The notes under the pieces were generated by a model. The model had not been told where the DNA came from. It saw only the letters and a list, made by a program, of their open reading frames with translations, and made no database searches. The position numbers and the translations under genes are program-made. Of a stretch of 64,000 nt of DNA, positions 2,904 through 45,726 are shown in pieces (position 1 is the stretch's first letter; each line of letters starts with the position of its first letter). The stretch lies in assembly GCA_017676145.1 (NCBI GenBank), contig GCA_017676145.1_3628.1, one strand, 5' to 3'. The DNA comes from a phage.

Positions 2904-4163
2904 CAGACTCCATTCATCACATTAAGTTTAGGGCTAGATACCTCGGTCTTTGGTAGAATGATTACCAAAAACTACTTGAAAGTTCACAAAATGGGTCTTG
3001 GTGAAGAACGGATCACACCTGTGTTCCCTAAAGTGCTGTTCTTCTTAGAGGAGGGTGTCAACATGAACCCTGGGGATCCTAACTACGATTTGAAACGATT
3101 GGCTCTAGAATGTTCTGCAGAGCGGATTTATCCTGACTTTGTTTCTGTTCCGCTGAATCGTAAAGTGACAGGTTCAACAGACGGCAAAGTAACAAGCATG
3201 GGATGTAGGTCGTTCCTTGGCAAATATGTTACACCGGAGGGTGATGAAAAATACCTTGGCAGATTCAACTTGGGTGTTGTTAGCCTTAACCTACCAATGA
3301 TTGCGGCAAAAGCTAAGACGGAAGGTATTGATTTCTTTGCAGTTCTTGACGAATACTTGGATCTTGCATACGAGGCTCACCTTGTAAGGGTTAACCGTCT
3401 AAAAGGAACAAAGGCAGGGCAGAACCCTATCATGTGGTGTGAAGGAGCTCTTGCTCGCCTGGATCCTGAAGAGAGTATCGATAAACTCTTCTATGACGGG
3501 TACGCTTCCATCAGTATTGGGTATATTGGTGTGTATGAAACCTGTCAGATTTTGGGCAGAGAGGGTGACAAGGCTTTAGCTCTTGGAATCCTTCAGCACA
3601 TGAAAGATGCTTGTGAGCGATACAAGAAGGAAAGTGGACTAGCATTTAGCTTGTACGGCACACCTTCTGAGAGTTTATGCTATAAAGCTGCAACCTGTCT
3701 GGATCGTGAATACCCAGAAGTGTTGAAGCACGAGCATGAATACCTCACCAACAGTTTCCATCAGCCAGTATGGATCAATAGCTCGCCTTTTGATAAGTGG
3801 AAGTATGAGGAAGGTTTTGCTATGATCTCCTCTGGTGGTAACATTGGGTACATAGAGACACCAAATCTGAAAAACAACTTAGATGCTTTGGAAGCTCTTG
3901 TTGATTTCGGATATAAACACATTATGTATTTTGGTATTAACCAGCCTGTGGATAAATGTCTTAAGTGTGGATTCTCTGGTGAGTTCAGTGCAACAGCTAA
4001 AGGCTTTGTATGCCCAGAGTGTGGAAACCATGAAGAGGGAACGATCAGTGTGATTAGACGTGTATCCGGGTATCTATCCAGTCCAAACTCCCGTCCTTAC
4101 AATAAAGGTAAGCAAGCGGAGGTTATAGAACGGGTTAAGCACTACGGAAGTTGTGGTTGCTGA
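2904..4163 (+). CDS. nrdD: anaerobic ribonucleoside-triphosphate reductase NrdD, exon 2 (C-terminal half with glycyl-radical domain)
   Basis: C-terminal zinc ribbon (CLKCG...CPECG) and glycyl-radical motif RVSGYL; in frame with exon 1 after removal of 2106-2903. Confidence 0.8.
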   Translation, partial: QTPFITLSLGLDTSVFGRMITKNYLKVHKMGLGEERITPVFPKVLFFLEEGVNMNPGDPNYDLKRLALECSAERIYPDFVSVPLNRKVTGSTDGKVTSMGCRSFLGKYVTPEGDEKYLGRFNLGVVSLNLPMIAAKAKTEGIDFFAVLDEYLDLAYEAHLVRVNRLKGTKAGQNPIMWCEGALARLDPEESIDKLFYDGYASISIGYIGVYETCQILGREGDKALALGILQHMKDACERYKKESGLAFSLYGTPSESLCYKAATCLDREYPEVLKHEHEYLTNSFHQPVWINSSPFDKWKYEEGFAMISSGGNIGYIETPNLKNNLDALEALVDFGYKHIMYFGINQPVDKCLKCGFSGEFSATAKGFVCPECGNHEEGTISVIRRVSGYLSSPNSRPYNKGKQAEVIERVKHYGSCGC

Positions 4164-19926: not shown

Positions 19927-20053
19927 CACACAATTAGCTGCCCGGCTAAAGTGCTGGAAGCACCTATAACACATCTTTCAACTAAATTTCCTACCACCAC
20001 AATCACTTACCTCCCACACATGACTGTTTGCTTGTTTAGTGAGCAGTCATGCC

Positions 20054-20081
20054 TTGACATTCTTACCTATCCTGATAAAAT
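20054..20081 (+). promoter_or_regulatory. sigma70-like promoter (TTGACA-16-TAAAAT) followed by hairpin + T-run within about 50 nt
   Basis: ccttgacattcttacctatcctgataaaat, then ccgagtaattcggg hairpin and T-rich tract (about 20110-20135): possible very short transcript or attenuator. Confidence 0.35.
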
Positions 20082-20499
20082 TAAGTTCTTCTCTTTTCTT
20101 TTACCGAGTAATTCGGGTTTTCTGTTCTCTTCGGTTTGAAGGGGTATGGAGATACACCTGAGTGAACAGGGTGAACAACCGAACAGTTAGCTATGGCATT
20201 AGCATGGCGAAGCGGACGGGTGACGAAAGAGGGGCCGGAGGACACCAGTCACTGCCATATGGTATATGGGTGATAACCTGAAGAGTCTGAATAAGTGTTT
20301 AAGTACCAGTCAGAGGAAAAGGTGAATGGTAGCCGAAGGGGGAGGGGGGTTTCTTGTATCTTTAATTTGTATACTTTATATACACTTGTAAACCAATTCA
20401 ATTAGAATCTGTTTACCACACAAAGTGGATACAGGCAAATATTCCCTATTAAACTTGAATTATTTATAGAAAATACCACAACACCACTTAAGTCTTTGA

Positions 20500-20660
20500 T
20501 TTTACACACAAATCTTACAGATATTCAACCTCCATATTTAACATACCTGTAACATATCCCATACTCTACCTGCCTGATCAATTTCCCAAACTACATCCCC
20601 ATATTTTCCCTTCCTGTACTACCCCTGCCCCGCCGGGAGTCCCGTCATATCTGGCTTTCC
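20500..20660 (+). other. strongly strand-biased pyrimidine-rich (C+T) tract in non-coding hub
   Basis: About 160 nt with very few G on + strand (aacctccatatttaacatacctgtaacatatcccatactctacc...). Confidence 0.5.
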
Positions 20661-21044
20661 AGCAAATATCACACCCACAAATATCATCACCTGAAGAGTG
20701 ATTCCTCCCATAATCCACACCCTGCCTGAAGAGCGCTTCATACACCGCGTAAATTTTTTAATTGATCCCTCCCCGCCGCCGGAGAGGTTGGCTTTTCCCA
20801 CACAGGCCTGAAGAGTCAGCCAGAAATATCTGAAGGGTGTCCAGTTCTACCACGATTTTGACCTGACCTACAGGAGTGCTGCCCTGTCAGGAGCCGTAGC
20901 GACTGGAGTGCTGCCAGGCGGACGAAATGGGAATACTTCTCATTCTTATAACAATTCTCAAATATCGGGGCAGTGAGGCAAATTAATAGGCGAGGCCGCT
21001 CACACAGTGGCACAACATTTGCAGGCTATTTTGTGGGGGTGAAT

Positions 21045-21078
21045 GAGAATACCTATCATTGTGAGAATAGTTATCATT
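21045..21078 (+). repeat. tandem pair of 16-bp motif GAGAAYRNYTATCATT
   Basis: gagaatacctatcatt and gagaatagttatcatt 2 nt apart; same motif recurs at about 31924 and 32050. Confidence 0.55.
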
Positions 21079-21473
21079 ACGGGCAATTTAACATAATACC
21101 CATTATGCGCACCACTGTCGATACATACAGGGATTGATAACATGGGTTACTGTTTACGCATATAACAATTGTATTTCTTATTATTTGTGGGGGATATAGT
21201 TAGCAACCAATAGATTAGTTATTAACCTGCGGACTTCTGACCGTCTAGACGTCCAAACGCCCACACCACAAGGATTATACATACACTCCTGAATGTAAAC
21301 AGGTCCGAAAAAATGCTACCATACCAGTTTGTAAATTTTCCATGCAGCACTTGACAAAGAGGAGAAAAACTTGTCTGACACCTTATACACACCGGGCACC
21401 TTATACACTTTCGACACAATAACGACTGTTATTATTTCATGTTTCATTATTCACGTGCAGATTGTTCCTGCGT

Positions 21474-21535
21474 AGACTGTTTACGCCTGGATAGTTTGCA
21501 CCTGAATAGTTTACACCCTGACAGTTTACGCATAG
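21474..21535 (+). repeat. array of four AGTTTAC(G/A)C-type iterons spaced 14-15 bp
   Basis: ctgtttacgcc / tagtttgcacc / tagtttacacc / cagtttacgca in direct orientation. Confidence 0.55.
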
Positions 21536-21543
21536 ATGATAAG

Positions 21544-21562
21544 CCATGACATTCGTTTGCAT
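21544..21562 (+). repeat. 19-20 bp direct repeat copy 1 (gccatgacattcgtttgcat)
   Basis: Exact second copy at 21837..21855; the pair brackets iteron/palindrome-rich segment. Confidence 0.6.
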
Positions 21563-21594
21563 GATAACACCCTTGAGACGAGGGCTATGCTCCC

Positions 21595-21660
21595 GAGTTT
21601 AACAATTAACAAGATAACAATTGACAAGCTAACAGCCAACAAGCTGACAATTAACAGGTT
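21595..21660 (+). repeat. array of AACAATTAACAAG-like iterons
   Basis: taacaattaacaag ataacaattgacaag ctaacagccaacaag ctgacaattaacagg: four direct repeats. Confidence 0.5.
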
Positions 21661-21836
21661 AATAATATATGACATAATATAAAAGCAGGGCAACTATTAG
21701 CAGATCTATAGTTGCCTTGCTTATTATGTCATGATTAACTGAATACAAGGCAACTATGATCTGATTAATAGATTGCAGACAAACTATCACGGGGGTGATT
21801 GTTACTGCTTTTATATTATGTCGCGACTCCGTCGCG

Positions 21837-21855
21837 CCATGACATTCGTTTGCAT
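21837..21855 (+). repeat. 19-20 bp direct repeat copy 2 (gccatgacattcgtttgcat)
   Basis: Identical to 21544..21562. Confidence 0.6.
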
Positions 21856-22470
21856 AGTTGCCTTATTGTTACAGGTAAAATAATTACATTGTTAACTATT
21901 TCTTATCTTTCTCTTAGTCATCTAATGATTCCAGTCAGTATAGTTATGTGCAGTAAACATTAGACGACTAAAGATTTCTCTGATTATAGTAACCTATCGT
22001 GACAATTTCGGACTGTTTACGAAAAATGTTGACACCTGGGCAGGTTTATGTTATGCAGTTTGTACGAATAATTATTTTGTACAGGTATTGACTATTCCGT
22101 TATTCTGTGGTTGGAATAAATACTTTGCAGGCTATAGAATGGTGATCGTACGTGGATTCTGAGATCTGTCGGCTATAGTTACACCCGATTTTTCACGTAG
22201 GACGCGCTTTTTGGTTTGTGTAAGTGTATGACTTATAAGGGTTTTTAATTGTTGACAGTATACTGAAAATGTGCATCAGGTTAAATTTTGCGCAATAGCT
22301 GCATTACGTGCAATTTTGGGAGAGAAAACAGGTAAAAATAGCACCGCTACCACACAATGAAAGGTTATGCAATAGTTATTTTACATGTATATTTGTACAG
22401 TGTGCTGGATTAATGGCTCGTCAATTATTCCACTTGTCAGGTAGGGCCGTTTATGGTAGGAAAAGAGCAG

Positions 22471-31253: not shown

Positions 31254-31451
31254 TTATTTTTTATTAAACCAGTGGTTGATCTGGCCTTTTGTCAGGGCGC
31301 AACGATTAAGCTGTTGCCGGGTATAGCTCTGACCGCGACGGAATTTATAAAGGCCTTGCCCGTTGTTGATGGTCACATCCACCTGGCAAATCATTTGATC
31401 GGTGACCACCTGGCGAGTGCTGCGACGTACTTTAATTCCGTAGGCGTTCAT
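31254..31451 (-). CDS. hypothetical basic protein (65 aa)
   Basis: Track ORF; gagagga SD. Confidence 0.45.
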   Translation of the reverse strand: MNAYGIKVRRSTRQVVTDQMICQVDVTINNGQGLYKFRRGQSYTRQQLNRCALTKGQINHWFNKK

Positions 31452-31487
31452 GATTTTTATCCTCTCTGTTAATTAGTGTGGTGTTGT

Positions 31488-31712
31488 TCACCTTGCGAGG
31501 ATAAGAATAACAAAAACTGTCCTAGCTGTCAACCACCAGTTAAAATTATTTTTTGGGTAGAATTCTCCAGCCGCCGCCCCTGCCAGGTTGACCATCATTT
31601 TTTCGTACTCTTCTTTATGTTCCAACGCTCCCGCCATAGCCTTTTCAACCAGGGCGATGGCCTCCGCGTTATTAATAGCTACATTTTCCAGGAGGATCCT
31701 ATTACCTTTCAT
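31488..31712 (-). CDS. hypothetical protein (74 aa) with C-terminal hydrophobic segment
   Basis: Track ORF; gaggagg SD. Confidence 0.5.
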   Translation of the reverse strand: MKGNRILLENVAINNAEAIALVEKAMAGALEHKEEYEKMMVNLAGAAAGEFYPKNNFNWWLTARTVFVILILAR

Positions 31713-31823
31713 TTTTGTACCTCCTCTTCAATTGTTACCTATCCTATAGCATAGGCCCACCAGGCTGGCCCCGCCAGGTTGCAGCGGTCAGCGCATCAGG
31801 TTAGAAAAATTTTTTGAAAAGTG

Positions 31824-31852
31824 TTGACAGCGGCCCCGCCAGGTGGCATAAT
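31824..31852 (+). promoter_or_regulatory. strong sigma70-like promoter on + strand inside the leftward block (TTGACA-17-CATAAT)
   Basis: ttgacagcggccccgccaggtggcataat; no ORF of 60 aa or more downstream on + strand; transcribes conserved GGGAGACAA / GAGAA-TATCATT elements. Confidence 0.5.
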
Positions 31853-31885
31853 ATACATATCGAAAGGACGGCAGGCACCGGTGAC

Positions 31886-31906
31886 GGGGGAGACAACCAC
31901 CGGGGA
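31886..31906 (+). promoter_or_regulatory. GC-rich conserved element GGGGGAGACAACCACCGGGG (copy 2 of 3)
   Basis: About 35 nt downstream of -10 of promoter 31824; followed by GAGAACGATTATCATT at about 31924. Confidence 0.45.
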
Positions 31907-31923
31907 TGGGCGCTGCATGAAAT

Positions 31924-31939
31924 GAGAACGATTATCATT
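31924..31939 (+). repeat. 16-bp motif GAGAACGATTATCATT
   Basis: Third of four copies of GAGAAYRNYTATCATT. Confidence 0.5.
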
Positions 31940-32001
31940 ATCGTCTAAAAATTTATGCAAAAACTTCTTGCTTTCTTTGTCCTGTGTGGTACTATAATAA
32001 C

Positions 32002-32020
32002 AAGCCGGGGCAGTAGGGGC
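32002..32020 (+). promoter_or_regulatory. GC-rich conserved element GGGAGACAATCACCGGGGG (copy 3 of 3)
   Basis: Preceded by TACTATAAT -10-like element; followed by GAGAATGATTATCATT at about 32050. Confidence 0.45.
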
Positions 32021-32049
32021 CGGGAGACAATCACCGGGGGTGCCCGTTA

Positions 32050-32065
32050 TTCTGCAAACGAGAAT
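32050..32065 (+). repeat. 16-bp motif GAGAATGATTATCATT
   Basis: Fourth copy of GAGAAYRNYTATCATT. Confidence 0.5.
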
Positions 32066-32696
32066 GATTATCATTCAAAATTCTAAATGAGAACTTTTCG
32101 CATTTCATAAATTTAGTTAGCATGCTAATTACCTACCGTGACAATTCTATATAAAATAATAACTCCTAAAATATTCCCATATAGAAATTTTAAAAATCCA
32201 TTTCTGAAAACGAAAAATCGATTTAGTCCCCAAAAATTTCAGGTCGAGCGCCGGAACGATTTCCAGAAAATCTGATTCAGAAAACGAAAAACAGATCGAG
32301 TACTGAGAGATTTATCGAGAAAAATTTTCAGAAAATCCAATCTTTGAAACGAAAAACAGATCGAGTACTGGGAAAGATGTATCAAAACCTATTGATAATA
32401 ATTAACTTATTGTTATAAAAGGTCAGAAGTAAGTTGGGAAAGTTCTGGTAGAAGGGTGAGAGTGTGTGCGGAAAATCTGGAACGGTGATTTGAAGTACGG
32501 TGCGAACGATAGGATGATCAGCACAGCTTATCGTGCCTGTCTTGAAAAATCCATTTTAGTTTTCGATCCATTTTCTGATTTTCTAAGGATTTCCAAATAT
32601 CTGCAAATATCTGATAAATAAGGGAAAATCCATTACATATTTTCCCTCATCGCCTAAAATTTTTATAATTTTAAAATAAATACTACCATAAATATC

Positions 32697-33341
32697 TTAA
32701 ATAAATTTCACCAATGTTATAGTCTCCTTATTATTTTTCAAATCATTCTCAAGGATAGTTATTGCACGTTTAATGGCGAACAGCCAAATCTCATCTTTGT
32801 TTTTAATAGCCTGAAGTTTCATCTCCTCAAGTTTCATTTCTTGCCACACCTTGTGTGCTGTCTGTGGATCATCGAAATGACCGCCATGAACAATTTTTCC
32901 ATCTCGATGACAATGCACGAGATACTTGTTTACATCTTTTCTAAGTGTCACACCCAAAGGTAAATCCCCTCGTGCTGCCTGTCTTATGCCAAATAGGGTG
33001 TTTATTTGTGGTGGAACAAACATGCATGTTTCTGGGGAGTATATTCTGTTTCCAGGGATTTTCAGATCTTTGTCAAGAGTGAACTTCTTAGCGTCTCTTT
33101 TCCACTCTTGTGTATCCATCCATTTCCAGAATTCTGAGAACAACCACCAATCTTCTACAACTTCACAACCTGTATGGTACTTTGAGTTATCGCCGTAGCA
33201 CCTCTGGAATAATGCTTTCCATGTAGCATAGTGGGGTTCTGGTACTCTCTTACCATTAACAGATTGGTACATTGGGACTTTGTCTTTTAAATCGTTTACT
33301 CCACGACCACATACTTTTCTGTCTTTAACAGGTATTCCCAT
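32697..33341 (-). CDS. putative homing endonuclease-like protein (degenerate HNH-like segment plus AP2-like DNA-binding segment)
   Basis: ATG at M18 of track ORF; LDKDLKIPGNRIYSPETC (HNH-like) and KYLVHCHRDGKIVHGGHFDDPQTAHKVWQE (AP2-like pattern); flanked by AT-rich repeat region. Confidence 0.35.
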   Translation of the reverse strand: MGIPVKDRKVCGRGVNDLKDKVPMYQSVNGKRVPEPHYATWKALFQRCYGDNSKYHTGCEVVEDWWLFSEFWKWMDTQEWKRDAKKFTLDKDLKIPGNRIYSPETCMFVPPQINTLFGIRQAARGDLPLGVTLRKDVNKYLVHCHRDGKIVHGGHFDDPQTAHKVWQEMKLEEMKLQAIKNKDEIWLFAIKRAITILENDLKNNKETITLVKFI

Positions 33342-33666
33342 CAATCCCACCTTTTCCTTTGTACATGCGTAGAGGTATAGTCTTTGTAACATTCCATCTC
33401 CCCAACCCTTCCCAGTTCCAATTGTGGGCGTGGTACCCAGTTATGCATGCACTGCTGGAGTGATCATAGGCATAGGAGAACGCTATGCGTAACAGATGAG
33501 GCCAGTCTTTCCACGGCTGTGGTCCGTAAGCCTTTCTCCAACACCGACACAAACTAAATGTCTCAAGAATAGGCAGGATAACAAATCCATACACCACCAC
33601 CAAGATGATCAGCGCAATGATTGTCAGGAATACATACCCTGCAGTTGAAATGATGATCTCTGTCAT
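33325..33666 (-). CDS. membrane protein (113 aa, N-terminal TM helix)
   Basis: Track ORF; ISTAGYVFLTIIALIILVVVYGFVILPI. Confidence 0.4.
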   Translation of the reverse strand: MTEIIISTAGYVFLTIIALIILVVVYGFVILPILETFSLCRCWRKAYGPQPWKDWPHLLRIAFSYAYDHSSSACITGYHAHNWNWEGLGRWNVTKTIPLRMYKGKGGIDGNTC

Positions 33667-33857
33667 TTGTCATCCCCTTTACGAATATAGATGTGTGAGC
33701 CTGCCTGTATATAAATTTCTCGACCATCTTCTGCAAAAATATGGAATACACGGTCACCTTCGTATTCAATACGGGATATCTTCATAACGGTCTTCCCACC
33801 CGGAATGCGGATCTCATCGCCTACAGCAATGTTCCATGCAGATTTAAGCTTAAACAT
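33663..33857 (-). CDS. hypothetical protein (64 aa)
   Basis: ATG at M3 of track ORF; aaaggaggg SD. Confidence 0.45.
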   Translation of the reverse strand: MFKLKSAWNIAVGDEIRIPGGKTVMKISRIEYEGDRVFHIFAEDGREIYIQAGSHIYIRKGDDK

Positions 33858-36874: not shown

Positions 36875-37498
36875 CTAAAAGTATTCATAGAGGTATCCAT
36901 CGGGAGCTGGAATTTTTTCATGAATGTAGTAATCAACACATATTCCTGTTTCTCTTCTACAAGAATTGTGGGATACCCATTCTTTAAGAACGTTGCCATT
37001 CATGTCCAACCTCCTTACATTTTTACACCGTCTACCGCTGGTGCTTCTATGCAACAGAATATCCTCCGTCTGCTTGTCTTTATTTTCTCCCCAGGTCGTT
37101 AAACGGATATTATCAAAAGAGTACCCTTTGAAATCATCTATCCTGTCACAAGAGGGCTTTTTCCTTTTGTCGTATCCGCTGGCTACCCACTGGTCATACA
37201 ACTCTTTGTAACCGTTCAGGTATAGCCACTCCTTAAACTCTTTTTTGGTGTAAGTCGGAGGAGGGTGACCTCTTTGCTTGCTGTTGCACTTTTGAGCCTT
37301 GTACAACACGCGTATTACACCTTTTTCTGAAGAGTCGTGGGAAAACTGGTCAGCCTCCCTACTGGCCTTCTTACAACACTCTTTGCACTTATTAAGATGA
37401 CCGTCAGACATCTTTGGGTGTTTGTAGAACTCGGAGAGGTTTTTCACCTCTCCGCACTTGATGCACCTCTTACAATGCGTGGATTCTACTTTTGCCAT
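36875..37498 (-). CDS. Cys-rich protein with degenerate HNH-like C-terminal motif (possible free-standing homing endonuclease)
   Basis: ATG at M30 of track ORF; N-terminal CKRCIKCG...CKECC zinc ribbon; C-terminal [15 protein letters not shown] resembling HNH tail; overlaps 3' end of 37470..38741. Confidence 0.35.
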
Positions 37499-38741
37499 AT
37501 TGCAAACCCACCGGAGCGAAAGGTATGTCATCACAGAAGTCATACTGTGCTGGATTCTGATCCATTGGGTCATCTTCCGCATCATCTACAGGAGGGGCGT
37601 CTACAGTGTTTTGCTGTGGAGTGGCTTCCTGTTTGGCAGCTTGAGGTTCTTGATGCTCAGTAGTCCCCGCACCATTCTTGATCCAATCGTACAACGGTTC
37701 AGCAAGATTAGTCAAGACATCTTTTGCCTCTGCAGTAATTGCTGCTGCAAAATCATCAACTTTCGTTTTCTTGTCAATACGGCGACAAGCGTTCAATACC
37801 GCGTTACCAACACTGGCACCTACTTCATCTTCAGTCCGGTTGGTGGCTTGAGCGTACTCTTTCTTAAGCTCGATGGTGACCACGTGCAATGTTTTAGCCA
37901 CATCTAAAGGGCTGTCAATCTTAAACCCGCGATCCAGAATGATCTGCAACGCATTGATACTGTGCCCTGTCTCTACACCAATGGGGTCGTAAGAGGATTT
38001 ACGCTTACCACCAGAACCTTGTGTACCGTTCTCTGCTTTAGGCGGGTAGGCCTTGAAGCCGCTGATAATATTCCCGGTGTCTTTGTCAACAATAGCTGCA
38101 ACACGACCGCCAACCACCAGATCTTTAAGCTGCTCATCAGTGACAACCATGGCACCTTCGCCAATCTTGTGGTCATTAACAGTAACCACGTTGCCAACAA
38201 TCTGAGTCACATCGCCATAGATGCGTAAAACGTCCTGATTGGCATTCTGCTGAGGTTTCTGCTTCTGACCTTGTGATTGTGCACCTTGTTGCTGTTTTTG
38301 TTGCTGTGGAGCTGCTGGAGCCTCTCCTGCACCCAGTTTGACCATCTTAGCCAGTGAGCCTTTGTAATAGGTCTTACCGTTATGCTCATTTGCCTTTAAA
38401 GGGATATTTACGATCCATCCTGGCGTTACTGTTTCCCACTTGTCATCAATTTTAACAGAGACGGAATCTTGATGACCAGGTTTGAGCAATTTATCACCCA
38501 TGCTGATCCAAACTTCTTCACCACCTTGAAGTAGGTTATCAGAAGAATCCAGTTCAGAAATCAGTAAAGAGATGGTATGGCTGGACTCGATTTTCTTACC
38601 TTGCCACACAGTGGTTTTAATACCTGTTGTAGGATCGGCACCTTTGATAGGCTTGATGCTGACACGTTTAATCATGCCGTGAGCCAGTAAAACAGTTTCA
38701 CGCGGATTCATCGGGTTAGCGAATTGTTGAATAACGCTCAT
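37470..38741 (-). CDS. putative ssDNA-binding protein-like protein (423 aa) with Gln-rich linker and acidic DDIPF motif
   Basis: Low-complexity Q-rich linker and C-proximal acidic DFCDDIPF resembling SSB tail; aaggaga SD. Function call is tentative. Confidence 0.35.
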
Positions 38742-42974: not shown

Positions 42975-43302
42975 CAATAGTTCAGGTAGGTCGTTAAGCT
43001 ACCCCGCACCATTACGTGCATAGCCATACAGTTTCCCGTATGGATCGGACTATCTCACTGCCTTGTCACCAAGGCACCTCTCATTTCGACCGCACTTGCT
43101 GGCCTACTCTACTCGCTTCTTCACCCCAAACTGTGTTGGAGCTATGCTTTCGATAGTCTCTGAACGTTCATCCTCTCGGATGCTTCGCTGCGGATTAGCA
43201 TATTGAGCTTTTACCATGGTTAGGTGTAAAAGTCAACTTAGCCTTCCCGTCAATTAAAGAGGTTTTCGACGTGCATCACTGCACGAAGCCACAATGTTAT
43301 TT
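42975..43302 (-). mobile_element. ORF-less group I intron interrupting DNA polymerase motif C
   Basis: 328 nt between H and DE codons of motif C; exon 1 ends in U, intron ends in G; P7-like pairing AGACUAU / AUAGUC present; in-frame stop 1 codon into intron. Confidence 0.55.
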
Positions 43303-45726
43303 ATGGTAATAAATAATCCGACGAACACCCTCATCATACCATCCACGCTTCACCAGCTGGTGGTGCATGAGGATTCCCACCAAGTCGCACAACGAGGCAC
43401 CGCCATTTTGCTGATATGCATTAAGCAAAGAGTGTTTAGAGCGGGTCCAAATGGCATGACCGTCAAAAGAGTAGATGAATTTCTTACCTGTTGCTTCCCA
43501 GAATTTCTCCAGATCCTCTTTACGCCCCTTAAGACCTGGGTTGGCATCCCAGAGAGCATCGATTACTCTCTGCCCCAGCTCTGGAGAGATATCCAGCATA
43601 TCTGCAACTTTATCTTTTTGTGCCCCGTACATAACCCCATACGTGACAGGCTTACCATCGTTACGAGACACCTCCCTGCCTGCTACTTTTGTATATGCCT
43701 CAGCATTGTTTTGGTGCGCATCTCCGTTACTTACAACATCATAGTACAGACCGTTGTCGAACTCAAAGGCACCCCAAGCCCCGATAAGCTGCTCTAAGTT
43801 GGACCCGTCAATACCGATCTCAAAGTATCCGGGAGGAACACCCCACAGACTACGCATCTCTTTACCCATAACCACTTTAGGAGATGGTTTAGGCATGTTT
43901 GCACAAATGCTGTGTTTCTGTCTGGAAGTGTTTGTTAATCCAGAACTTTTAGCAGGAAGCTTATGGTCAATCTTCAAACGTGGATGATTAAGAAGACCAG
44001 TATCAACCTTATCCTCCTTGATTGGATCAAGGACCGATCTACGGTTTCGCAAGGATAACCACAAGACGATATCTTTAGCCATCTCTCCGTTCAACTTTTC
44101 AAGATTCGGACATAGGTGTCCAAACGTATCTTTCAGTTGCGGAGAAGTAATAAGCGCTCTGGCTTTTCTACGTATCTTCCCAAACACTTCCTTTTTAATC
44201 CTTTCTGAGTTAGGGAAGCTTCGGAACTTGTGCACGGTTGTCTGAAACTTAGCATCAGTTTTGTTCCAGAAGTTTATAATTAGGTCACAATACTCTGACT
44301 CTAAAAGCTCGTCCATATATGCATATACTCGTGCATCAACATCAGCATCAGGCAGAGCTTTCTTCTTGCTGTCTTTAGTTACATCCTTAGTTCTCCACAT
44401 TGTTGGGAGCCAACCAGCACTAATCAGGTATCGCTTAATGTCGTCCTGATTGCTGATTTTCATAGGTATCTTGCAGTCAGGCATTCGCTTCTGCTGTAGG
44501 TCACTTATTGCCTGATCCATTAGCTCTTTAGGTAAAGGGTGTGGTGTAGAAGTTCCTTTGATATACCCCCTCAAGAAATCAGCCATCTTATCTGGGTCTT
44601 TACAGCCCATCTCTTCACACCATTTTATCCCCATTTTGCTGACATCCCCTGCAGAGGTAAATGCTCGCTTAGGAGGGGCTTTGAACTCTAAAGCGCTCAT
44701 GTCCACAGGATAGCCAAGCTTGTCTTTTAACCATTTCCAACCATTATTGGAGATTGTCCCATCCTGGTTAAACGGCTTTTCAGGGAACTTAGGCCGCTGA
44801 GACATTGATAACTCTTTTAAAGGAAGTTGTGGTTCAACACGATCAGCGATCTCTTTCATCCACGCATCGCAGCGGTCACGTAAAGCAATAGCCCCATCTA
44901 TGTCGAAATACACACCCTGTCGAGCCTGCAGCTCCATCAGGAAATGCTGCAGCATGCCTCGGCGTAATGCATTCTTCCAGGTAATCTTCTTGAATCCTTT
45001 AGGCTTCTCTTTGGCAGGGTCATACATAAAGTTCTGCATGTCAGATTTGCCGTAGAATACACCTTTTGATTCCGCTACCAACTCTTTCCAGAGCAACTCC
45101 TGGATGATAACGTCCTCGAACACACGATCCACATATTTCCACAGTGGAAGCTCACGCCAGTCATCGATTTGAACTTTCTGGTTACCAAGGGCATAGCCCC
45201 ATGCCATAAGGCCATGAGGCCCAACAGGTTGCATTTTCTTGGTAACTGGATTGAATACTGCGTCCGGACAACCTTTTGGCAAAGGGCGGTCAGGCCACAA
45301 GATTCGGCTCATAGCTAACGTATCAAACAGATTAACCTGGTGGTCGTTGATAGTTCCCATGCATTTAGGGTCACGGAACATATCAAAATGAATACCAGAT
45401 AATCTCTCCATCAGCATAAAGTCATAACTGTAGCAGTTATGGCAGTTCAAAGCTGTTGGTGACCAGTCGGAATTGCCTGTAAGCCAACCTTCCAACTCCG
45501 AAAAATCTGCTATGCGGACTTCAAAATCTTTATAAAGAGTTTTCTTTGCTAGAATAAAGTTCTTAGCCTTCTCTACATCCTCTTCAGAGTAGTGTGTGCG
45601 GTCATTTAGAGGAAGGAACAGCATAAAACGGTTCTTATTCAGCTCTTTAAACAAACCGCAGTGATAATAAAGATCTGGATCTTCCAGCAAGCCCGAGGCC
45701 TCCAGATCGAAAGACCACATACTCAT
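43303..45726 (-). CDS. DNA polymerase (family A, T7-like, with 3'-5' exonuclease domain), exon 1
   Basis: Exo I motif FDLEASG; motif A-like GIDGSNLEQ; motif B RNDGKPVTYGVMYGAQ; ORF terminates right after ...IIYYH, immediately before motif C acidic residues. Confidence 0.8.

Follow-up and report, generated by a model that had tools for sequence, protein, structure and literature searches.

A homing-endonuclease-like gene cassette beside a conserved non-coding region in a Vequintavirus genome

Overview

The DNA analyzed here is a 64,000-nucleotide stretch (the window) of phage contig GCA_017676145.1_3628.1, assigned to Vequintavirus as an rV5/FV3-like E. coli myovirus. In its segment 32100-33341 an AT-rich, repeat-containing stretch adjoins a minus-strand gene, and the two together had been proposed to be an acquired mobile insertion. 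Our reading, to which we give a probability of roughly 0.72, is that a cassette carrying a homing-endonuclease gene (HEG) of the IPA-HNH type lies beside a conserved, non-mobile non-coding region, the latter being its landing site. The mobile portion, as delimited by comparison with relatives, is 32602-33358 only, that is, the gene and a terminator-like hairpin; the AT-rich repeats belong to the presumed landing site and are not cargo. The proposal of acquisition holds for the gene, which is sporadic, has defined borders at 32602 and 33358 and belongs to an HEG family, and fails for the repeats, which are found in gene-less relatives. The features that carry this reading are:

32602 to 33358, no strand assigned: insertion or replacement cassette of 757 bp (blastn breakpoints against FV3 and rV5_ev168, alignment and identity profile)
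32697 to 33341, minus strand: IPA-HNH-type homing-endonuclease-like gene, 214 aa, with an N-domain motif, AP2 at about residues 125-180 and then C-terminal helices
32618 to 32650, minus strand: terminator-like hairpin of the cassette, AGGGAAAAU...AUUUUCCCU with a U-rich tail (inverted repeat I13, RNA fold centroid, FV3 alignment)
33325 to 33666, minus strand: upstream neighbor gene, 113 aa, matching phrog_2531 and overlapping the HEG start
31713 to 32601, plus strand: conserved non-coding region, present in all Vequintavirus relatives, with a module order kept across Vequintavirinae

Borders and distribution of the cassette

A total of 122 phage records match window 31400-33700 at 80-97% identity, the top matches being Escherichia phages SYGMH1, YP-6, 241Ecol014PP, and FV3. 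FV3 and rV5_ev168 served as HEG-less references for alignment. The window is collinear with them over 31300-32601 (96% and 89% identity, respectively), and the alignment resumes at about 33353-33359, so that the 757 bp of the window stand where these genomes hold about 100 bp. The ~100 bp are not the mark of a clean deletion but a different sequence, which carries a terminator hairpin; in the window this native hairpin of HEG-less phages is replaced by the cassette's own terminator-like one. On the other side, the phrog_2531 neighbor is identical to its FV3 orthologue at 103 of 106 residues, with divergence confined to the C-terminus, where the last codons are rewritten by the insertion.

The whole 31400-33700 query is covered in only three of the 122 records, and one further record is a fragment; the cassette is absent from about 118 of them, FV3 and rV5 included. 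A protein search found the gene at ≥95% identity in four records; the phage homologues ranking next fall below 42% identity, come from unrelated phages and are often present in several copies per genome. The backbone of 241Ecol014PP is rV5-like, and its flanks match those of the window at 72-92% identity, against 94-100% for the cassette; this excess in the cassette indicates that it resides in two backbones. Sharp borders, sporadic presence and short, apparently co-converted flanks are the pattern expected of a free-standing HEG.

The encoded protein

The gene starts at ATG 33341 behind a ribosome-binding site AGGTGGG, and the same length is annotated in two relatives. The 214-residue product matches PHROG 953 ("HNH endonuclease") at E = 4.5e-65. 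Pfam and NCBIfam gave zero matches, with no Pfam HNH family appearing even at E ≤ 0.1, and a single-sequence search of PDB returned a chance match only. A profile search of a representative-protein library recovered 20,641 relatives at E ≤ 1e-3, of which 58 were aligned and used for residue conservation, for the Pfam check of relatives and for the AlphaFold model. This model reached a pLDDT (predicted local distance difference test) of 92.9; one built from 10 sequences (pLDDT 62) was too poor to be used.

The closest link to a described family, one that takes its name from vibriophage ICP1, is to ICP1 gp59, which the family profile matches in hhalign over 227 columns and both domains (probability 99.9%, E = 9.8e-36), and which BLASTP matches at E = 3e-16 with 32% identity across 108 residues. 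Both proteins share the motif LDKD...GN..Y.PE.C..VP..IN. The ICP1 study by Barth, Dunham & Seed (2023; PMC10448857) describes "IPA-HNH" HEGs as having an N-domain too divergent for the HNH_3 profile and a C-terminal AP2 domain. We take the window protein to be a member of this known putative homing-endonuclease family, and infer nuclease activity for it.

The AP2-like pattern noted in the original prediction is borne out by the AlphaFold model, the profile and a fold search: a three-stranded antiparallel sheet packs on one helix, with a G-V...G...F...A pattern. The HNH-like segment proposed with it turns out to be the divergent HNH domain of the literature and lacks the catalytic His. Its invariant residues are R47, F71, W74, D90-K91-D92, C106, and N114, with N98 present in 55 of 58 sequences, and the predicted order around D90-N114 is strand-strand-helix.

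Several points weigh against calling this protein a homing endonuclease. The position of the HNH catalytic His is taken by an invariant Lys (in D90-K91-D92) in 58 of 58 sequences, no Pfam HNH family is found at E ≤ 0.01 in the protein or any of the 58 relatives, and no beta-beta-alpha-metal nuclease is among the top PDB fold-search matches listed. In the cited part of PMC10448857 the HEG status of IPA-HNH genes is argued from domains and distribution. Moreover, phage proteins combining AP2 with a zinc finger (CasPRs) can be pure repressors.

In other relatives the gene is annotated as "hypothetical protein." The SYGMH1 orthologue (L002 2796-3371; MW883061.1, SYGMH1_70) is annotated as "ATP-dependent Clp protease" with a shortened start, a name that its sequence does not support. 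The window holds a second HEG-like gene at 36875-37585 (minus strand), coding for 236 aa and matching phrog_1035 ("endonuclease VII") at E = 2.4e-41; the N-terminus of its product is rich in Cys, and in a CDRID...N motif Arg apparently takes the place of the HNH His. Kinship between the two window proteins was ruled out (hhalign probability 1%).

A recurrent landing site

In PVP-SE1, Hena1, and DU_PP_I, a search with the family hidden Markov model located divergent IPA-HNH genes at this position as well. All three lie on the minus strand, just past AAATATC boxes that end the non-coding region, and their products share 29-32% identity with the window protein. The Certrevirus case is an independent indel, in which DU_PP_I 3023-3700 stands in place of 138 bp in F4M1E, and the PVP-SE1-type gene occurs at ≥95% identity in nine records only. 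Since the gene upstream of the site differs among genera, it is the non-coding region that serves as the common landmark. The presence of IPA-HNH genes at the same edge in four genera is most simply explained if this conserved right edge is a recurrent homing target.

The left junction itself lies within a set of short repeats:

32543 to 32613, plus strand: short repeats AAAATCCATT / GATCCATTTT plus CAAATATCTG x2 in tandem; the non-coding region has its right edge here, and the HEG left junction falls inside

Exact AAAATCCATT has three copies in the 64 kb, all at this locus. We also noticed that the tandem CAAATATCTG x2 is perfect at the left junction (32594-32613) in HEG carriers, and that HEG-less genomes have AAAATATCCGGCCAGGTAAAATATC there (L001 2700-2730). 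The tandem could be a changed form of the target site, one that shields the HEG carrier.

By the proposed mechanism, the AP2 domain would, during co-infection, bind the genome of a gene-less phage at a site in the right edge of its non-coding region; the N-domain would cut close by, and recombinational repair would then transfer a copy of the HEG, along with a short stretch of flanking DNA, to the recipient.

Alternative readings of the gene and its surroundings

The alternative that survives best, although we regard it as rather unlikely, is that the gene encodes a domesticated AP2-type binder, a repressor or accessory protein inactive as a nuclease, which would act on the neighboring non-coding array and might bind for example the AAATCCATT / AAATATC boxes. 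It would account for the lack of a catalytic His, of an HNH model and of a nuclease fold match. AP2-containing CasPRs are sequence-specific transcriptional silencers, CapR is according to PMC10448857 a domesticated HEG DNA-binding domain, and the homologues in the same place in four genera could mean that co-location reflects function. However, the aligned relatives show little or no variation at D-K-D, N98, C106, and N114, which suggests a catalytic-type site. Within each genus the gene is patchily distributed, its indel borders are sharp, its sequence is better conserved than that of the flanks, and its relatives often occur in several copies per genome. Together these points suit a selfish element better than a required factor. 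Upstream small plus-strand open reading frames (ORFs) of other genera were considered as the box binder and rejected, being two unrelated families, neither of which is in the window.

An ancestral presence of the gene here, followed by loss through deletion in most Vequintavirus lineages and with no mobility involved, is very unlikely. PVP-SE1, Hena1, and DU_PP_I do have homologues at this site, which speaks for such a history, but their identity to the window protein is only 29-32%, and the cassette sits in two Vequintavirus backbones at an identity above that of the flanks. A deletion with the same borders would be required in each of about 118 of 122 relatives, and the unrelated ~100 bp with their own terminator hairpin are no clean deletion.

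That the whole of 32100-33341, AT-rich repeats and gene together, is a single acquired cassette is next to untenable: the compositional low at 32100-32800 and the contact between repeats and gene speak for it, but the repeats are present in gene-less relatives, the sequence up to 32601 being collinear and 89-96% identical in HEG-less FV3/rV5 and covered in 114 records, and the repeat architecture is kept in genera without the gene.

The conserved non-coding region

At least 80% of 31713-32600 is covered in 114 phage records. From left to right on the plus strand, its modules are promoters, GC-rich segments, Fur-like palindromes, three repeat units, a variable G-rich stretch and the AAATCCATT / AAATATC boxes. 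The layout of the repeats is found again in six further Vequintavirinae lineages. The same module order recurs in Mydovirus, Certrevirus, Seunavirus, Henunavirus, and one Serratia phage; recurrence is partial in a Stephanstirmvirinae phage, which keeps the part with promoter, structured segment and Fur box and lacks the iteron core. Minus-strand genes surround 32100-33341 throughout. The plus strand of 31713-32601 is purine-rich, opposite to the flanking gene regions, which fits rightward transcription of a unit without a conserved ORF. The region appears to be a conserved, non-mobile unit that is transcribed rightward. No description of it was found in the literature searched, and a pattern scan of IMG/VR added one new contig only. 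Its individual features are:

31824 to 31852, plus strand: sigma-70-like promoter P_A, TTGACA-17-CATAAT, TG-extended, scan score 11/12, directed against the surrounding genes
31859 to 31923, plus strand: GC-rich segment A, paralogous to segment B and, like it, behind a rightward promoter
31924 to 31942, no strand assigned: Fur-box-like palindrome A, matching GATAATGATAATCATTATC at 17/19 positions, against 0.01 such sites expected per window
31968 to 31998, plus strand: putative promoter P_B, TTGCTT ... TGgTACTATAAT, not called by the scan and proposed from the sequence and a same-position promoter in L004-L010
32000 to 32058, plus strand: GC-rich segment B, with conserved motif GAGACAATCACC between complementary arms (repeats D2/D3, alignment, folds)
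32060 to 32078, no strand assigned: Fur-box-like palindrome B, 15/19, forming the core of the 60-90 nt with the widest conservation in the region
32180 to 32373, plus strand: three iteron-like units in direct repeat, whose cores, GAAAAA(T/C)(C/A)GAT, are at 32212, 32286, and 32351, with an upstream sub-site GAAAAT.. about 21 bp before each core

The enterobacterial Fur box consensus is GATAATGATAATCATTATC, which the two palindromes, as predicted sites only, match at 17/19 and 15/19 positions. There are one to five such palindromes per phage, and they are conserved in phages that infect six genera of enterobacteria (E. coli, Klebsiella, Salmonella, Serratia, Erwinia, and Pectobacterium phages; around 1226-1340 in L004-L010), with the phage consensus AATGAGAATnATTCTCATT. 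Unlike usual Fur boxes they do not lie over a clear -10/-35 and sit about 60-70 bp downstream of rightward promoters; the promoter-like site abutting predicted box B is on the minus strand and weak (9/12). A host origin of the segment was ruled out by the lack of a match in 5,426 E. coli genomes, and no report of these palindromes was found in the literature searched.

The two GC-rich segments share the conserved motif GAGACAAYCACC flanked by complementary arms, and each is possibly a small structured RNA. The outer helix P1 of segment B shows a few compensatory changes across genera, but its covariation statistics are weak. Rfam 15 gave chance-level matches only on 31650-32750 and seven related loci. 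In other genera we also observed a further GC-rich element of about 85 nt, ACGCCACCCCACGGCGAAAAGGCGGGGCTAAC...GGAAGGTGGATCGCCGG, highly conserved behind its own promoter, absent from the window and without an Rfam match:

L004 1020-1110: ~85-nt GC-rich element
L005 1035-1115: same element
L006 1030-1115: same element
L007 1030-1115: same element
L009 1035-1115: same element
L010 1030-1110: same element

A tRNA remnant over the conserved core was suggested by a Klebsiella record that annotates tRNA-Met and tRNA-Ile there. This was rejected, as ARAGORN and Rfam find no tRNA at that place or in a second such record, and the two annotations are taken to be mis-registered. More generally, the Klebsiella phage records L004 (OY978796.1) and L014 (OY757067.1) carry many annotated tRNAs and "HNH endonuclease" coding sequences, and ARAGORN finds zero tRNAs; both feature tables appear to be shifted against the sequence.

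Composition and repeats of the AT-rich segment

The description of 32100-32700 as markedly AT-rich is confirmed. Compared in 601-bp windows across the 64-kb stretch, its GC content is 0.321 against a mean of 0.434 (sd 0.024), making it the lowest 600 bp of the window (32.1% vs 43.4%). Only 0.13% of the 601-bp windows reach a value this low, and the lowest in 64 kb all begin at 32000-32200. The low extends over 32100-32800, with GC 0.30 across 32100-32420. The gene at 32697-33341 is only mildly AT-shifted (39.1% GC), and the compositional break, which had been taken as a mark of insertion, lies mainly in the conserved non-coding region. Judged by the refuting condition set with the original prediction, conservation at unchanged borders in every relative, the repeat segment is not a mobile insertion, whereas the gene stands as one.

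The direct repeats are real, with positions about 3 nt off those first given. The exact 24-mer AAACGAAAAACAGATCGAGTACTG occurs at 32282 and 32347, within a family of 55-nt repeats in three copies (32180, 32254, and 32319; spacing 74 and 65) that are 62-80% identical to the reference copy. The repeated motif tttcagaaaatc has one exact copy (32326) and one with a single mismatch (32261); its count by itself is near chance, although both copies fall within the larger repeat unit.

The stretch 32100-32700 had been described as free of ORFs; short ones of 45-51 aa are present. The longest (32466-32621, plus strand, 51 aa) was rejected as coding, as a change in the length of an A-run frameshifts it in FV3, YP-6, and SYGMH1, and the region is accordingly regarded as non-coding.

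What the repeats may do

The three repeat units have the same orientation and are spaced 65-75 bp apart. Each contains two GAAAAnnCGAT sub-sites 21 bp apart (six in total), a pair made up of GAAAATnCGAT... and GAAAAAnnGATCGAG, with GATC within the cores, and the core motif is confined to this one locus within the window. In Hena1 both sub-sites are altered together, a joint change that suggests a binding protein specific to the phage or lineage. Tentatively, then, the repeats may be an array bound by a phage-encoded protein, that is, an origin-like cis element of the iteron type activated by transcription. They resemble such origins (plasmid/P1 iterons; PLE ori repeat 3, PMC7145576) in their uniform orientation and in sub-sites two helical turns apart. 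Further resemblances are the AT-richness (30% GC), the core GATC, promoters reading into the array and the single locus per genome. The layout in the window, an array entered by transcription from two upstream promoters, resembles that of T4 oriF/oriG or the T7 primary origin. Unlike classic iterons of 19-22 bp, the window units are spaced at 65-75 bp, and no skew inflection accompanies them.

A number of observations count against an origin at this place. The GC-skew inflection is not at 32 kb, the cumulative skew switching at about 19 kb and about 59 kb; phage skew mostly tracks transcription direction (PMC3606486). No DnaA box was seen, by-eye inspection being the only means used, and no initiator gene was identified, an adjacent one not having been looked for. 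A second non-coding region of about 2.3 kb (20006-22308) lies between converging gene blocks at a GC-skew switch, and has repeats of its own: a 15-bp unit x4 at 21602-21666, ACTGTTTACGCATA x4, and an exact 20-mer x2. In addition, the Vequintavirinae phage Bas54 has, according to the HIDEN-SEQ preprint, an intergenic region of about 2 kb between oppositely transcribed genes without transposon insertions. This region may correspond to window 20006-22308; its identification with the 31.7-32.6 kb locus was ruled out, as the description (~2 kb, between oppositely transcribed genes) differs.

It is possible, and about equally likely as an origin-like role, that the repeats act at the level of transcription or RNA, as part of an early non-coding transcript of about 0.7 kb or of a promoter/operator hub, Fur-gated and with no replication origin; they would then bind a regulator or sequester a host factor. 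Such a role would fit the rightward sigma-70-type promoters conserved in position, the plus strand being purine-rich as is the mRNA-sense strand elsewhere, the right-end hairpin, the lack of a conserved ORF, the single orientation of all repeats and the Fur-like boxes at one to five per phage, as well as the lack of a skew inflection and the existence of another candidate origin region. On the other hand, Rfam and the consensus fold find nothing, covariation is weak, and the small structured segments have no terminator downstream; folds and covariation likewise give weak support to RNA structure in 32420-32550. The 21-bp spacing of the sub-sites and the core GATC are also typical of protein binding at the DNA level.

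A more specific proposal, which we hold to be quite unlikely, is that host Fur would bind the near-consensus boxes and gate rightward early transcription into the iteron array, in a control module of Vequintavirinae partly shared with Stephanstirmvirinae.

Comparison with known systems

The free-standing homing endonucleases of T4 comprise Seg (GIY-YIG) and Mob (HNH), with activity shown biochemically. The window gene is like the Seg/Mob genes in being intergenic and self-contained with its own expression signals, in its presence or absence among close relatives and in its short co-converted flanks. It differs in catalytic family, and the activity of its product is a prediction from sequence.

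A closer parallel are the IPA-HNH HEGs of ICP1 (gp59, gp115/116, and gp209), which are likewise free-standing, sporadic and enriched in diverse phages (PMC10448857), with the same arrangement of a divergent N-domain and a C-terminal AP2. In comparison with gp59, the window protein is without the N-terminal extension of about 80 residues and has two extra C-terminal helices, and its gene adjoins a conserved non-coding region rather than DNA polymerase. Canonical endonucleases of the HNH / HNH_3 + AP2 type (Magnani et al. 2004, cited after PMC10448857) also combine a nuclease-like N-domain with AP2, and the predicted strand-strand-helix of the window protein resembles their beta-beta-alpha; unlike them, it has an invariant Lys for the catalytic His, no Pfam HNH match and no HNH structure among the PDB matches listed. 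CapR/CasPR repressors bind specific DNA sequences through an AP2 domain, which may or may not be accompanied by a Cys-rich one, and are derived from HEG DNA-binding modules. CasPRs combine AP2 with the CapR zinc finger, whereas the window protein has no CapR match; one longer relative has CapR.

Further observations

A group I intron, perhaps one of those that rV5 is reported to carry in terminase genes, is present at 43025-43312 (minus strand; Rfam RF00028, 75 bits, E = 2.8e-17). Among the database records, 16 titled "Campylobacter phage" and listing C. jejuni as host share 89-92% identity with the coliphage region, and their host labels look doubtful.

Significance

The gene is an ordinary phage HEG-like gene, and its value is chiefly one of annotation, given that it is now called "hypothetical protein" or, wrongly, "ATP-dependent Clp protease." Beside it, a module of about 0.9 kb that combines promoters with Fur-like boxes and iteron-like repeats has been kept throughout the subfamily, and the literature searched offers no explanation of it. 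Homing endonucleases tend to target sequences that a genome cannot change. That one mobile family has repeatedly landed at the edge of this module therefore suggests that the cis element, be it an origin or an early control region, matters functionally to the phage; the phage group is one of therapeutic relevance. If the Fur-gated proposal were true, phage replication or early gene timing would be coupled to host iron status, and an indispensable module would be the preferred homing target of IPA-HNH genes in several genera.

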